From: Candidatus Obscuribacteraceae bacterium
GTDB taxonomy: Bacteria > Cyanobacteriota > Vampirovibrionia > Obscuribacterales > Obscuribacteraceae
Assembly: GCA_044226015.1 (NCBI GenBank)
Contig: JBGAHS010000005.1
Location: 416,001 to 480,000 of the forward strand
DNA length: 64,000 nt
Direction: 5' to 3'
Part shown: piece after piece, positions 51,776 to 60,009 of the stretch
Layout: each line of letters begins with the position of its first letter
Position numbering within the stretch: position 1 is the stretch's first letter
Notes under the pieces: model-generated
What the model was told of the DNA's origin: nothing
The model's database searches: none
The model's input: only the letters and a program-made list of their open reading frames with translations
Program-made: the position numbers and the translations under genes

Positions 51776-53059
51776 GTGGCTCAGGGACAAAAGTCTCGTT
51801 CCAAAGATGGGTTGGTTCAAAATCCAGCTCAGGTCGGCAATGCGCTCGCCCATGTTCTCACGTCTGAGAATGGAAGAGAAATTGTCTTAGGGCAAGCCTG
51901 GCTTGCAGCACCAGGAAAGCTAATAACTTGTGGGCATGTCGTGGAAAGGTTTGTTGGGGCACCAGCGCATCTGTTCGTCAAGTTCCCTGCCTCTGGCAAT
52001 CGCTATCAGGTGTCCAGGGTGATGCTTCACCCAAGTTTTGTGCGACAACCAGACCAGCTTGTGAAGTTTGACGTGGCAATGATGGAAGTTGCGCTGCAGC
52101 ACCCTGAATCGAGCGCAACTCCGCTGCCGTTTTCGTACGAGCAGGCCTTCACTACCAATCAGACATTATGGGCTGTTAGATATGCTGCGCATCTGGGACA
52201 TTTGAGTGCCGCCCCTCAGCCTCTAACGCAAGATGGTCGCTATCTTGGACCACTTCGAATTCACGACACTTTTCACCTTTTGCATGATTTGCCGCTCGCC
52301 CCGGGCGACTCAGGTTCGCCAATTTCAGATGGAAACAGCATTGTTGCCATCCACTGTGGAGACACAGCGACACTGCCTGGGCTAAATTTGCCAACAACCT
52401 CCATTCGGCTTGCACTCTGGGTCGATGCGCTGAGAGAGCTGGGAATAAATGAAACTGTTCGTGGTGGCAGCGCTCAGCAAGGCAGCAATCCTCTGCCGCA
52501 TGCCATTCTCTCTTTCGTGCTGGCTGCAGCAATAGCCGCCGCTGCCGGCTGGTTCTATTTTTCCTCGCAAGCTAAGCAAGCCTGGGCATTCGATAACCCA
52601 GGGCTGATGCCCGTTAAGGTATCGTTCAATGAATCGATTGAGCAATATGAGTTAAATCAGGATATCGTCATAACGATAACGCCATACTCAAATTGCTACC
52701 TTTTCGCGGTCTCTATCGACAAGGATGGTAATGTATGCGCGCTCTATCCACAGGCAGGTCAGGACAGCAGTGTTTTGCAGAAGGGCGAACAGCGAATAAT
52801 CAACCAGTTTGGAAGAACGAAATTGGCTGCAAACCCGAGTAAGGACATGATGTACATCATTTCCGTGGATGGTGATAGTCCAGGTGGGGCTGATATTGCC
52901 AAGCAAGTTCTCTCAAGTAAGGATTGGCCGCCCAAAGCGGAAGAGGGGCAGCCCTTGTTAATCAAAGGCAAGGAGTTCTTGGACAGAATAAAGGCGCTGC
53001 GTGAGCAGCATCCGGCAGATATTCAGTATTATGGGTTTATAGGACCGCACTCAAAATAG
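51776..53059 (+). CDS. trypsin-like serine protease - TM - DUF4384-like domain
   Basis: ITCGHVV, FDVAMM and PGDSGSP catalytic triad; TM helix AILSFVLAAAIAAAAGWFYF; YELNQDIVI..CYLFAVSIDKDGNVCALYP DUF4384 pattern. Confidence 0.85.
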   Translation: MAQGQKSRSKDGLVQNPAQVGNALAHVLTSENGREIVLGQAWLAAPGKLITCGHVVERFVGAPAHLFVKFPASGNRYQVSRVMLHPSFVRQPDQLVKFDVAMMEVALQHPESSATPLPFSYEQAFTTNQTLWAVRYAAHLGHLSAAPQPLTQDGRYLGPLRIHDTFHLLHDLPLAPGDSGSPISDGNSIVAIHCGDTATLPGLNLPTTSIRLALWVDALRELGINETVRGGSAQQGSNPLPHAILSFVLAAAIAAAAGWFYFSSQAKQAWAFDNPGLMPVKVSFNESIEQYELNQDIVITITPYSNCYLFAVSIDKDGNVCALYPQAGQDSSVLQKGEQRIINQFGRTKLAANPSKDMMYIISVDGDSPGGADIAKQVLSSKDWPPKAEEGQPLLIKGKEFLDRIKALREQHPADIQYYGFIGPHSK

Positions 53060-56194: not shown

Positions 56195-56402
56195 AATCCC
56201 TCAAATCTGGCATGGCCAGACTTCTAGTATAAGGCCGTTTGAGCCTATTATGCCTAAGTTACAATCTAAAGTTCTGATTAATGATGCGTAGTCGATCCTT
56301 GAATAGCTCTTCCAGTAATACTTTGCCAGGTTCAGGGTTTTCCCTCTAATACTGGAATCTGGTCTTTTGCATAATTGAATTTAGATTCTGGAGTTTGCGT
56401 AA

Positions 56403-57521
56403 ATGAATAAATGTCGACTCGGCGTGGCGCTGTCCGCGACGATAACTCTTTGTATTTCACTTTCGGTTTCCGCCCAAAATGAGAAGTGGCCAGGAGGGTT
56501 TCCGGGTTCAAAGATGGCAATTGAAACGCCTCTCAAACGAATTATTTCTGGTACTCCAGGTACGTATAATTCGAATATGCGCTCCAAATATGGTGCGGGT
56601 TCACTCACCTCTAATACAGTTTCTTCGAAATTCGGACGAAGCGTCAAAACAGGTTATGTCGCATGGCACAATGATATACAGACGGCTCTCGAAGCATCCA
56701 GGAAGTCTGCAAAACCTCTCCTCGTTTTTCAGATGTTGGGCCGATTAGATCAGGAATTCTGTTGAACGAATGCAAGAATGGCGAGAACCGTGTTGTTCTC
56801 TAATAAAGAACTGGCAAAATACATCAATGAAAATTTCGAACCAGTCTGGCAATCAGTCAGAGAAGTTCCTATCGTAAATATCGACTTTGGCAATGGCAAT
56901 ACTGTAAAAAGAACCATTAATGGGAACGTTGCTACGTTCGTCTGCAAGAGCAATGGTGAGGTTCTTGATGTTCTGCCCGGGCTATACAGTCCGGATTCGT
57001 TCGAAAGCAGGTTAGAACAATTGTCTCTATTAAACAAATACATAGAGCAGTTTCCTACAAAAAACGAGGGAGATCTGCTCGCTGGCTATCACCATATGCA
57101 GTACCAGAGGCTCTTGGCTGGAAAAACAACTACAGAGTTTGCAATGAAAAACAAAGCTGACGGAAATTCCCTTATCGTCTTTACCGACAGAACATCATCA
57201 GAGCTTAAGCGATGGCAAGAACCGATCAGTTCCAAGGAGTCTTATCGAACACTTCCGTTCTCAGATAAGTTGGAAGATTGGTCACAGTTGAATGACGACG
57301 TACGTTATAACGAGACAGTTATGCGAAAGCAAATACATAATCGTTTGGAACAAATGCAGAAAGTGAAAGAGCCAGCAACGGTAGCAGGACTGAGCAAATG
57401 GATTTACCGCGAAGTGCTTCACACCGACATTGATGACCCCTACCTTGGTCTGCAAACGGTACTCGACGGAACCTATCCTTTTGAGAAAATGAATCGGGTC
57501 AAACCGCTTGGTGGCACCTAA
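56403..57521 (+). CDS. predicted exported thioredoxin-like selenoprotein (372 aa, Sec at codon 121, CU motif)
   Basis: ORFs 56403..56765 and 56778..57521 are in frame and separated only by TGA at 56763-56765. Read-through gives VAWHNDIQTALEASRKSAKPLLVFQMLGRLDQEFC-U-TNARMARTVLFSNKELAKYINENFEPVW, a continuous thioredoxin-like fold. A SECIS-like hairpin follows. Confidence 0.78.
56766..56800 (+). promoter_or_regulatory. putative bacterial SECIS element
   Basis: Stem GAGAAC (56783-56788) / GTTCTC (56795-56800) with loop CGTGTT; 23 nt lie between the UGA and the loop, and G is the second loop base. Confidence 0.65.
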
Positions 57522-57535
57522 CTTTTGATGCTGTT

Positions 57536-59830
57536 TTATGCCTGTTCTATTGTTGAGTTCCGATGTCGTTCGATTATTGCATCCTTCTGCTTTTCGACAG
57601 ACAAACCTGTTTTCAATCCGAGAACGAACCATCCCAGTGCTAAAATTCCAATTGCGAAAATGGTGTCGCCGATAACTCGAAGCCATCTCAGAATGTTCAT
57701 CAGATCTGTCTGCAAAAACTCTGCTGAGCGCGCATACCACATGCCGTGTTCGGCGCTTGCCCACGTTTGCAAAAGTCCTACGGGAAGCAAGCTAAGTAGC
57801 ACCATAAGCGAGAGTCCAATATTTATTGACCAGAATGAATAAGCTAACATTTTTGTTTTCCAAACATTCCTGCTTGCCAGACCCTTCAGGCAAAAAAGCA
57901 TTAGACCAATTCCAAGCATGCCATAAACACCAAAAAGCGCTGTGTGTCCATGTACAGCAGTAGTGTTCAAACCTTGCATGTAATAGAGAGCAATAGGGGC
58001 ATTGATCAAAAATCCGAACAAGCCTGCGCCGACAAAATTCCAGAATGCAACAGCAACGAAAAAATAAATCGGCCATTTGTAAGCAGCTACCCAATCTCTG
58101 GCATGACTTAGTGTTAGATTCTCATACCCTTCGAATCCTATTAATACCAGTGGTACTACTTCAAGCGCGCTAAAAGAAGCACCCAGAGCTATTATAGCCA
58201 TCGGGGTTCCTGTGAAATAAAGATGATGGAAAGTACCGATGATGCCTCCTGTCAGGAAAATTATGGTAGAGAATAGAACACTCGATGTTGCTGTACTAAT
58301 CGGTAATATCTTCATTCGCGTGAAAAGAAAAGCAATTACTACAGTCGCAAATACTTCGAAAAAACCTTCAACCCATAAATGCACTACCCACCAGCGCCAG
58401 TATTCTGCTATTGCCAGATTTGTCTGCCTTCCCCACATCAGTCCAGCGCAGTAGAACACCGCAATAGCGAGTGACGAAATAAGAAAAAGACCTAAGAGGT
58501 GGCGATTCTCAGAAGGCGTTTTTATTGCTGGCATGAGTGCCCGGCACATTAAAGTCAACCAGAGGAAAAGCCCTACCGCCAGGAATATTTGCCAGAATCT
58601 TCCAAGATCAACATATTCATATCCCTGGTGCCCTAGCCAGAAGTTCATTTCTAGACCCAGGCGTTGTTGCACAGCTAGCCACTGTCCGGTCATTGAACCT
58701 ATAACAATGATAAGTAAGCAGGCGAATAGAAAGTTCACTCCTGCACGTTGAAACTTTGGCTCGCTTCCAGAAACAGCTGGGGCTATGAACAATCCCGTAG
58801 CCAACCATGTGGTGGCAATCCAAAAAATACCCAGTTGTGTGTGCCAGGTGCGGGTGACTGCATAAGGTAGCCAGTTCGCCAGGGGGATTCCATAAAATCC
58901 TGCACCTTCAACACCATAATGAGCTGTGATGGCGCCTAATCCGACCTGTGCAACCAAAAGCGCTCCTGCAGTCCAAAAATATTTCAGCGTAGCTTTCATT
59001 GATGGAGTCGGTTCAAGCGCCAGCAAGGGGTCTTTCTCAGGGACTTCATTCTCCGCTGCTATGTTATGTCGCTGAGCTGCGAAGTACCATGAAAGCGTGC
59101 CAACACCGGCAAGTAGCAGTACAAAGCTAAGCACCGACCAGACGATGATCTCTCCTGTAGGTTGATTGCCTACGAGTTCTTCAGGTGGCCAATTGTTTGT
59201 GTAAGTCACCAATTTTGATGGACGATTGGTACAACAAGCCCAAGATGTCCAGAAAAAGAAGGCATTGAGTTTTTTCATGCGAGCATCATCTTTGATTGCA
59301 TTAGCTGGAATTGCGTATGCATTTCGCAATTTTTCAAGCTCTGGGGCGTTCCCAAATAACTTCGTGTAATGGGTAAAAACATTTTTGATAGCTTCAGCAC
59401 GACGACTGGAAACGGTTAACACCCTTGATTGAAGATCGAGATTATTCGTGCGTAGCTCGTTCTTAACTCGGGTCTTTATTAGTGCTTGTTGCTCATTGTT
59501 TATTTTGGCAAAGCCGTTAGAAAATTCTGCTTGAGACCAGTCGTTTGCCAACCATTCTGCTTCGCGATGCAGGAAATCAGCCGACCAATCAGGTGCAACA
59601 TATGCTCCGTGTCCCCAAATGGATCCGACTTCTTGTCCACCCATCGATTGCCAGATGTTCTGTCCATCTTTGATGTCTTCTGCTGTAAATAGCAGGCTGC
59701 CATCATCTACTTTAACGAGATTGGGAATCGGCGGAGATTGAGCATAAATTTCGACGCCGTAGTATCCAAGCACGGCGAATGACAACACAATAACTATAAT
59801 GAGACCGGTCCAGAGTTTCTTGTAGCTCAC
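57536..59830 (-). CDS. norB: quinol-dependent nitric oxide reductase (qNor)
   Basis: GSIWGHGAYVAPDWSAD, RTWHTQL, QGYEYVDLGRFWQ, WWVVHLWVEGFFE, GTFHHLY, VHGHTAL; GTG start after GGAGA. Confidence 0.95.
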   Translation of the reverse strand: MSYKKLWTGLIIVIVLSFAVLGYYGVEIYAQSPPIPNLVKVDDGSLLFTAEDIKDGQNIWQSMGGQEVGSIWGHGAYVAPDWSADFLHREAEWLANDWSQAEFSNGFAKINNEQQALIKTRVKNELRTNNLDLQSRVLTVSSRRAEAIKNVFTHYTKLFGNAPELEKLRNAYAIPANAIKDDARMKKLNAFFFWTSWACCTNRPSKLVTYTNNWPPEELVGNQPTGEIIVWSVLSFVLLLAGVGTLSWYFAAQRHNIAAENEVPEKDPLLALEPTPSMKATLKYFWTAGALLVAQVGLGAITAHYGVEGAGFYGIPLANWLPYAVTRTWHTQLGIFWIATTWLATGLFIAPAVSGSEPKFQRAGVNFLFACLLIIVIGSMTGQWLAVQQRLGLEMNFWLGHQGYEYVDLGRFWQIFLAVGLFLWLTLMCRALMPAIKTPSENRHLLGLFLISSLAIAVFYCAGLMWGRQTNLAIAEYWRWWVVHLWVEGFFEVFATVVIAFLFTRMKILPISTATSSVLFSTIIFLTGGIIGTFHHLYFTGTPMAIIALGASFSALEVVPLVLIGFEGYENLTLSHARDWVAAYKWPIYFFVAVAFWNFVGAGLFGFLINAPIALYYMQGLNTTAVHGHTALFGVYGMLGIGLMLFCLKGLASRNVWKTKMLAYSFWSINIGLSLMVLLSLLPVGLLQTWASAEHGMWYARSAEFLQTDLMNILRWLRVIGDTIFAIGILALGWFVLGLKTGLSVEKQKDAIIERHRNSTIEQA

Positions 59831-60009
59831 TTCTCTATCTCCACTAACGCGTTGGTTTGAATTAGCATCTGTAGCTATCTGTGGCAAGTGCAGTGGTCGT
59901 CGATGGCATTCAAGTTTCGCCATCATTAGCAATTTCCAATCTTTTAGCAGTCTGCTGCTTCCTGTTTGCGTATAGATGCATGTGTGGGACGCGTAGCGCA
60001 GATGAGGAT

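Follow-up and report, generated by a model that had tools for sequence, protein, structure and literature searches.

Thioredoxin-fold selenoproteins are known from bacteria, and the table of prokaryotic selenoproteins in PMC13188914 catalogues several of their families, among them VPGUxxT proteins (NF041383/NF041382), DsbG-like, UGC-TlpA-like and Trx7/PDZ proteins, many thioredoxin-like families being keyed there to Pfam or NCBIfam models. In these families selenocysteine (Sec) is encoded by UGA, a hairpin in the coding region follows just 3' of this codon, homologues with cysteine exist and the genes are truncated by gene callers. Here, we describe a gene that very likely shares these traits. 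It lies at positions 56403–57521 of a 64,000-nucleotide stretch (the window) of contig JBGAHS010000005.1 from a Candidatus Obscuribacteraceae bacterium (assembly GCA_044226015.1). While UGA-encoded thioredoxin-fold proteins with an in-frame bacterial selenocysteine insertion sequence (SECIS) are known, the family to which the window protein belongs is not.

We consider, with a probability of roughly 0.87, that 56403–57521 is a single gene whose UGA codon 121 is very likely translated as selenocysteine, presumably directed by SelB via the hairpin at 56783–56800, and whose 372-residue product is likely exported and would be a thioredoxin-fold redox protein with vicinal Cys120 and Sec121. A sequence-only reading had proposed a hidden selenoprotein of this length from two adjacent same-frame open reading frames (ORFs) split by a single TGA, and this proposal is now supported by the conservation of the in-frame TGA, by the pairing of selenocysteine with cysteine among homologues, by the constraint on the hairpin at the RNA level and by the presence of selA, selB, selD and tRNA-Sec. 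The first ORF (56403–56765, 120 residues) stops at the TGA 56763–56765 right behind the TGT of Cys120, so that TGT TGA occupies 56760–56765 within the letters TTC TGT TGA ACG at 56757–56768, and the second ORF (56778–57521, 247 residues) is in the same frame. If the TGA is taken as a residue, a single 372-residue product with a recoded codon at 121 results. The base calls at 56763, which were to be checked, are confirmed by independent contigs, and the TGA is not a sequencing error: one contig from a 2016 activated-sludge metagenome spans 56300–57600 in one piece at depth 12 and differs from the window at three positions, two of them synonymous in the frame reading (56690 and 57308) and one changing Val to Leu (57363). 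The TGA is unchanged in this contig and also in a short contig from a third study.

A scan of 61 related genomes gave matches in 24 of them. All 17 strong matches that span the site (E ≤ 1.8e-45) contain exactly one TGA; 16 of these 17, with the window included and the place G025:C43 left out, were studied as loci of relatives. They match query residues 13–365 across the TGA, the alignment is gap-free over about 128 codons on both sides of the site, and the motif F-C-U-[T/A]-N-A-R with TGA at the aligned codon is present in 16/16. Additionally, 201 genomes of the order Pirellulales were searched. Five of them hold full-length orthologues (41–44% identity), each bearing the TGA and each showing the same motif; one Pirellulales match has a TAG as well, though not within the open frame to which the motif belongs. 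Another form is found in 45 of the 201 genomes, where relatives of the cysteine type occur without internal stops. Cys120 is retained in all 21 orthologues of the selenocysteine type (16 relatives and five Pirellulales), its codon varying among the 16 sequences between TGT (10) and TGC (6). That the same TGA and hairpin recur in 21/21 orthologous loci is more than chance.

Among 41 full-length homologues that span the site, cysteine is aligned to residue 121 in 37. At the preceding residue 120, 34 sequences of this alignment have Ser, the residue of the long cysteine-type subfamily, and six have Cys, and the arginines at +4 and +7 from the site are invariant in 42/42 sequences (query and 41 homologues). 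The cysteine-type consensus reads L-D-E-E-x-S-C-A-N-S-R-F-F-R. One protein, P0123 (314 residues, 46% identity), has F-C-W-T-N-A-R with Trp at the selenocysteine position; the gene caller may have used another code to translate a TGA, or TGA may truly have changed to TGG.

The hairpin that had been noticed shortly downstream of the TGA consists of GAGAAC (56783–56788), the loop CGUGUU (56789–56794) and GUUCUC (56795–56800). It begins 17 nt and its loop 23 nt past the UGA. The published model of the bacterial SECIS (bSECIS; section 5 of PMC13188914) comprises a loop of 3–9 nt, a stem of 4–16 bp, a distance of 16–37 nt from UGA to loop, a G in the first two loop positions and a minimum free energy (MFE) of −7.5 kcal/mol or below. 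With its 6-nt loop, 6-bp stem, 23-nt spacing and GU at loop positions 2 and 3, the window hairpin fits these structural terms of the model. Constraint was measured as the normalised entropy of synonymous codon choice at conserved codons of the 16 sequences. It amounts to 0.21 in the seven hairpin codons (+6 to +12) vs 0.86 in 57 codons outside (Mann–Whitney p = 3.5e-5, a value that overstates independence because the 16 sequences are related), and GCG AGA ACC GTG YTG TTC is nearly fixed at the hairpin codons. The synonymous saturation outside the hairpin means that divergence was ample. These data support a constraint that acts on the RNA.

The five planctomycete genes carry an identical 18-nt hairpin save one exchange of A for G that preserves a G-U pair. 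In the paralogues described below the hairpin reads GAGRGC-CGUGUC-GCUCUC, and its loop likewise begins 23 nt past the UGA (11 loci). In an alignment of 32 sequences the six core pairs (columns 24–29 with 36–41) are formed in 187 of 192 cells, and the seven-pair helix, which includes an optional seventh pair, in 90.2% of 224 cells; if the 3' partner is slid, 32–58% of the cells are paired. At pair 28–37, 20 sequences have A-U and 11 have G-C, a compensatory change found in the paralogue family. In the other loci the MFE of the hairpin ranges from −10.1 to −25.3 kcal/mol. When the whole genome was scanned for TGA codons with a CGTGT-loop hairpin behind them, six matches were obtained, only the three paralogues among them looking like coding sequence, so this loop is a trait of the family and not the general SECIS of the organism.

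The source genome (8.19 Mb in 13 contigs, 92% complete) encodes the complete machinery for selenocysteine, and all four genes that the sequence-only reading had asked for score above curated cut-offs: selD (366.7 bits), selA (505.7 bits), selB (329.3 bits, covering model positions 2–575 of 581) and selC, the tRNA-Sec (64.7 bits), for which ARAGORN gives the anticodon tca. A further frame of 405 codons lies at G000 C3:256022-256891 (−), 2.3 kb from selA (C3:259184-260518). Its match to the SelB model is confined to the N-terminal GTPase part (positions 1–266) and, with 200.9 bits, stays below the cut-off; the frame may encode EF-Tu or else a SelB-like factor that is truncated. As to distribution, selA is present in 33 of the 61 related genomes and accompanies a TGA-containing homologue in 23 of 24 cases, the exception being a genome only 65% complete; among the 28 genomes that lack selA this one alone holds a homologue. 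Within the taxonomic family of the source organism, 27 of 36 other genomes have selA as well. This occurrence, together with at least two paralogous and exported-looking selenoprotein genes, does not agree with the earlier expectation that an exported selenoprotein would be unusual in this lineage. Coordinates of all features are collected in Table 1.

Table 1. Features of the selenoprotein gene in the window and of its two paralogues
Feature	Position	Strand	Remarks
Shine–Dalgarno-like GGAG	56390..56393	+	9 nt upstream of whole-gene ATG (sequence)
Complete selenoprotein gene	56403..57521	+	372 codons and TAA; UGA is codon 121 (read-through translation)
Predicted Sec-type (export) signal peptide, residues 1–24	56403..56474	+	MNKCR / hydrophobic core / V-S-A, then Q25; by inspection
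Thioredoxin-fold domain (predicted), residues ~80–227	56640..57083	+	
Cys120 codon TGT, vicinal to selenocysteine	56760..56762	+	
UGA predicted as selenocysteine 121	56763..56765	+	
Predicted bacterial SECIS hairpin	56783..56800	+	6-bp stem GAGAAC/GUUCUC, loop CGUGUU
Conserved C-terminal helical region	57270..57497	+	N-E-x-x-x-R-x-x-I-H ... W-x-Y-x-x-V-L-x-x-D-x-D-D-P-Y-L-G-L; alignment columns
ORF of 247 residues, gene-caller artefact of stopping at UGA	56778..57521	+	not a separate gene
Paralogue, locus L133	G000 C8:156737-157837 (also given as C8:157606)	−	~366 codons
Paralogue, locus L134	G000 C6:197099-198235 (also given as C6:197881)	−	346–378 codons

The protein was modelled with AlphaFold2 from 42 sequences (mean predicted local distance difference test, pLDDT, 75.3; predicted template modelling score, pTM, 0.71). 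Confidence is high (pLDDT > 90) at residues ~80–240 and 290–350, the C-terminal range spanning 83–98, and low (< 50) at residues 1–74. The model shows a strand at 106–112, then the loop G-R-L-D-Q-E-F-C-U, and a helix at 122–131 right after Sec121. By its topology, Sec121 stands where the first helix begins, which would be the active site of a thioredoxin fold, and in this the model agrees with the earlier proposal that the TGA falls at the redox position. The fold is predicted to be of the Thioredoxin_7/DsbD-gamma type, and the structural matches listed for residues 78–227 are of the DsbD-gamma, DsbH, AGR and UAS type. In the relatives the N-termini are likewise basic and then hydrophobic.

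From these features the following course can be proposed. SelB carrying Sec-tRNA(Sec) would bind the hairpin while the ribosome sits on the UGA, and selenocysteine would be inserted at position 121. The pre-protein would be exported via the Sec pathway and cut after Ala24. Sec121 would then be the attacking nucleophile and, in the subfamily of the selenocysteine type, Cys120 would resolve the intermediate as a vicinal selenenylsulfide, much like the C-U ends of thioredoxin reductase and selenoprotein N, with Arg125 and Arg128, both invariant and in the same helix, tuning the reaction or binding the substrate. The long cysteine-type subfamily, which has the motif C-x-x-S and Ser at 120, would act as a monothiol enzyme. 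An adjacent Cys-Sec pair able to form a selenenylsulfide is also present in the C-terminal redox centre G-C-U-G of thioredoxin reductase (as described in PMC12839072), a mechanistic analogue in which this pair belongs to the flexible C-terminal tail of a flavoenzyme and not, as here, to the helix N-terminus of a thioredoxin fold.

Concerning the substrate another view has to be considered, namely that the protein is a selenoprotein whose Sec121, Arg125 and Arg128 bind or reduce a small oxyanion or metal(loid) instead of protein disulfides. We take the C-x-x-S-R site of glutaredoxin-linked arsenate reductase to be the model for such chemistry. The cysteine-type subfamily with its invariant S-C-A-N-S-R-F-F-R (a single Cys, Ser at +3, Arg at +4 and +7) would suit it, as would the lack of a second Cys in C-x-x-C register and the homologues without a vicinal Cys. 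Nevertheless, the listed fold matches include no structure of the ArsC/Spx type, the protein looks exported, the neighbourhood checks found no arsenic or metal genes near the family loci, and the likeness to ArsC is itself a presumed one, so we regard an oxyanion or metal(loid) substrate as improbable.

Much less probable still is that near-cognate or reassigned decoding yields Trp, Cys or Gly at this UGA. One homologue with W and one with G at the site would point that way, and they can be explained either by translation under another code or by real substitution. TGA closes 961 of 3452 long frames in the genome and is therefore an ordinary stop; moreover the full selenocysteine machinery is present and co-occurs with the gene in all but one of the genomes concerned, the hairpin shows RNA-level constraint and cysteine is the common alternative residue. 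Slightly weaker again stands the view that two genes are translated separately, one for an exported peptide of 120 residues and one for a protein of 247 residues starting from the ATG at 56778. It is true that gene callers output the 247-residue piece, that the databases contain hundreds of such pieces and that in the window an ATG lies 12 nt past the TGA. However, no GGAG, AGGA or GAGG occurs in the 25 nt upstream of this ATG, in agreement with the original impression that the second ORF has no convincing ribosome-binding site. Of 16 Obscuribacterales-type sequences, the window among them, 12 have Leu and not Met at residue 126, which means that the start at 56778 is not conserved; the cysteine-type homologues are single proteins across the junction, and the split would separate the first strand from the first helix of the predicted fold. 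The chance that we are dealing with a dead gene, its TGA being due to nonsense mutation or faulty assembly, is practically negligible: a lone in-frame stop does split an otherwise continuous frame and one homologue has Trp, whose codon TGG is one base from TGA, but the TGA stands at the same codon in every orthologous locus of two phyla, both halves are conserved gap-free and the independent contig differs by two synonymous and one conservative exchange only.

Several points nevertheless weigh against our reading of 56403–57521 as one selenoprotein gene. Decoding of the UGA as selenocysteine, very likely as it is, and expression of the gene are deduced by computation, the function is deduced from fold and motif, and the putative signal peptide was called by eye. 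The relatives compared are not independent of one another. The earlier expectation that homologues would span both halves and show either TGA or Cys at the site held for the orthologous loci and for most homologues, and failed in four of the 41, all of the short subfamily, which have W, S, E or G there; the redox residue is therefore dispensable in some members. No neighbour of the selenocysteine-type genes is conserved (20 loci and the window). As regards the SECIS, folding and covariation gave a divided result: synonymous freezing and one compensatory pair support it, and the window hairpin itself is weak, with an MFE of −7.1 kcal/mol that narrowly misses the threshold of the bSECIS model and a 76-nt fold no better than that of shuffles (z 0.56). 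The covariation is essentially one event, the split of the orthologues from the paralogue family; among the orthologues themselves the stem is nearly invariant, and the hairpin overlaps the conserved residues A-R-T-V-L-F-S. No Rfam SECIS family was detected in 56600–57000 at E up to 10, the only hit being a chance snoRNA match.

No match in Pfam, NCBIfam or PDB sequences gives the family of the window protein a name. In Pfam only sub-threshold matches were obtained, to Thioredox_DsbH (PF03190, 16.6 bits) and Thioredoxin_7 (PF13899, 15.1 bits), the cut-off being 27 bits for both, and PF13899 reaches E ≤ 0.01 in only 6 of 42 family members. The predicted thioredoxin fold is like that of the Thioredoxin_7, DsbD-gamma, DsbH and AGR-type proteins (PF13899, PF03190; PDB 3f9u, 3ira, 7tkv, 2ju5, 3ph9), but in contrast with them the window protein has no C-x-x-C motif (C-U-T-N-A; in the cysteine forms S-C-A-N-S). 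Its family has one conserved Cys or Sec with Ala or Ser at +3 and additionally a conserved helical C-terminal region of ~140 residues. To VPGUxxT proteins there is a weak sequence link (NF041383, E 0.0082, 15.8 bits vs a cut-off of 275). There the selenocysteine follows V-P-G, whereas the window protein has L-P-G-L-Y-S-P at this place, without Sec or Cys; its own Sec lies ~70 residues earlier, at the helix-1 position and in the motif C-U-T-N-A-R.

The protein is below the cut-off of every Pfam or NCBIfam model keyed in the table of PMC13188914, and its motif is not found in the searched parts of that table of prokaryotic selenoproteins. The deep-Sep and BSepDB papers make no mention of Melainabacteria, cyanobacteria or planctomycetes in the passages searched, and the supplementary tables of these papers could list the family. 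A profile search against PDB sequences gave no match at E up to 1, and a search with the single protein gave only chance RCC1 matches with E above 1. The ESM Atlas, searched with the cysteine homologue P0018, returned only unnamed clusters of "hypothetical protein". A contig scan of genomes with the single protein yielded 64 pattern matches, none of them confirmed. The family is without a Pfam or NCBIfam model and without a solved relative detectable by sequence. Literature searches found nothing relevant on selenoproteins in Melainabacteria or on selenocysteine in Vampirovibrionia, and those for peptide strings of the family found RNA motifs only.

A possible relative among animal proteins is selenoprotein N, the human form of which is described in two papers with the motif S-C-U-G, Sec462 and Arg466. 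The vicinal Cys120-Sec121 and the invariant Arg125 (Sec +4) resemble Sec462 and Arg466 as a motif match only. Unlike selenoprotein N the window protein has no Pfam EF-hand match, and its N-terminus consists of an apparently cleavable signal peptide and a disordered linker, no transmembrane part being found. None of the papers listed in a search on selenoprotein N speaks of bacterial homologues. A possible family link to animal selenoprotein N serves as a lead.

The genome of origin contains two paralogues of the gene, and nine further paralogous loci were examined in relatives, with the motif G-x-T-U-S-A-G-N-S-L-R-A-V-S-L-S. They are 24–30% identical to the query over the matched stretch, with 24–26% for those of the source genome, and 16–20% in alignments A3 and A4. 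In both paralogues of the genome (L133 and L134) the N-terminus resembles a signal peptide, only one in-frame TGA is meaningful and lies within G-K-T-U-S-A-G-N-S-L-R, and the hairpin loop, which is of the CGUGU type, begins 23 nt past the UGA. The paralogue family thus likewise has Sec at the equivalent position, a signal-peptide-like N-terminus and a CGUGU-type loop; it differs by T-U without a vicinal Cys and another motif after Sec, by G-C instead of A-U at stem pair 5, and as a separate clade in a quick tree (Shimodaira–Hasegawa approximate likelihood ratio test, SH-aLRT, 100). A third thioredoxin-like type with an in-frame TGA was seen in a Pirellulaceae genome (locus L141, G061 C57, ORF 1018–2667 on the + strand). 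Its motif is G-C-V-U-N-N-G-I-T-G-R and its match to the query is weak (E 1.9e-4).

The family is large, with 1917 matches at E ≤ 0.001 among 1.84 billion representatives. Most database homologues are proteins of 204–293 residues that cover only the C-terminal 60–66% of the query. Among the best 150 of the 1917 matches, 97 begin at query residue 126–152, being truncated halves, and 53 span the site. Ten homologues were fetched: eight begin just past the TGA position (M-[ARTV]-L-F-S), and two span it, with S-C and C-C. A pattern scan with one genome per species detected cysteine forms in at least 592 genomes of Acidobacteriota, Planctomycetota, Verrucomicrobiota, Myxococcota and others. Longer or fused forms were not found among proteins of 1179–3365 residues, and a search for forms of 544–2000 residues returned none, though it also missed the known bacterial members of 555 and 673 residues.

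The quick tree was built from 60 core segments. In it the short subfamily is united (SH-aLRT 86): the 16 relatives' Sec forms, five planctomycete Sec forms and four Cys forms make up a group distinct from both the paralogues and the long cysteine forms (SH-aLRT 100). Planctomycete Sec forms and the four cysteine forms fall inside this group, whose internal forks have poor support. The tree and the nearly base-identical hairpin are jointly consistent with a transfer between phyla and with switches between Sec and Cys. A still wider proposal is that the selenoprotein N superfamily has its bacterial branch in this family and its paralogues (exported thioredoxin fold, Cys-Sec, Arg at +4 and +7) and that a selenocysteine-type gene with a near-identical SECIS moved between Vampirovibrionia-type bacteria and planctomycetes. 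We regard it as tentative, the odds being somewhat against it.

Neighbourhoods of cysteine-type genes were inspected at 79 loci, one from an unpublished genome being set aside. Directly downstream a Trypsin_2 protease gene, mostly with tetratricopeptide repeats (TPR), is the commonest neighbour, found in 15 of them, mostly from Acidobacteriota, and a response-regulator gene in 12, mostly from Planctomycetota (11 complete and OmpR-type, one cut by the locus end). Each of these sets may reflect one conserved synteny. A DegP-like Trypsin_2/TPR protease and an OmpR-type regulator as neighbours weakly suggest a role in cell-envelope protein quality control or stress. Next to genes of the selenocysteine type further single observations were made. 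A Trypsin_2 serine-protease gene lies at 51776–53056 (+) of the window, 3.3 kb upstream of the selenoprotein gene, and another directly upstream of the orthologue in one relative (locus L036, 2194–3384, −). In two of the five planctomycete Sec-type loci a sulfatase gene (SGSH_C) is convergent on the selenoprotein gene (L143, 1488–2000, −; L146, 1482–2000, −). In the window the gene is followed by a convergent one at 57536–59932 (−), which encodes a 798-residue protein resembling quinol-type nitric oxide reductase (NorB cytochrome c-like domain and COX1); the stop codons of both genes are 14 nt apart.

What reads as two ORFs is therefore a genuine mis-split selenoprotein gene of an uncatalogued and widespread thioredoxin-fold family, the selenocysteine reading being very well supported computationally. 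Recognising this family would mend hundreds of split "hypothetical protein" annotations, and it documents the use of selenocysteine in non-photosynthetic relatives of cyanobacteria. Its hairpin is an unusually clean example of a SECIS, with synonymous positions held fixed in both phyla. Were the link to selenoprotein N true, the family would offer a soluble and genetically tractable bacterial model for the chemistry of this human myopathy protein.

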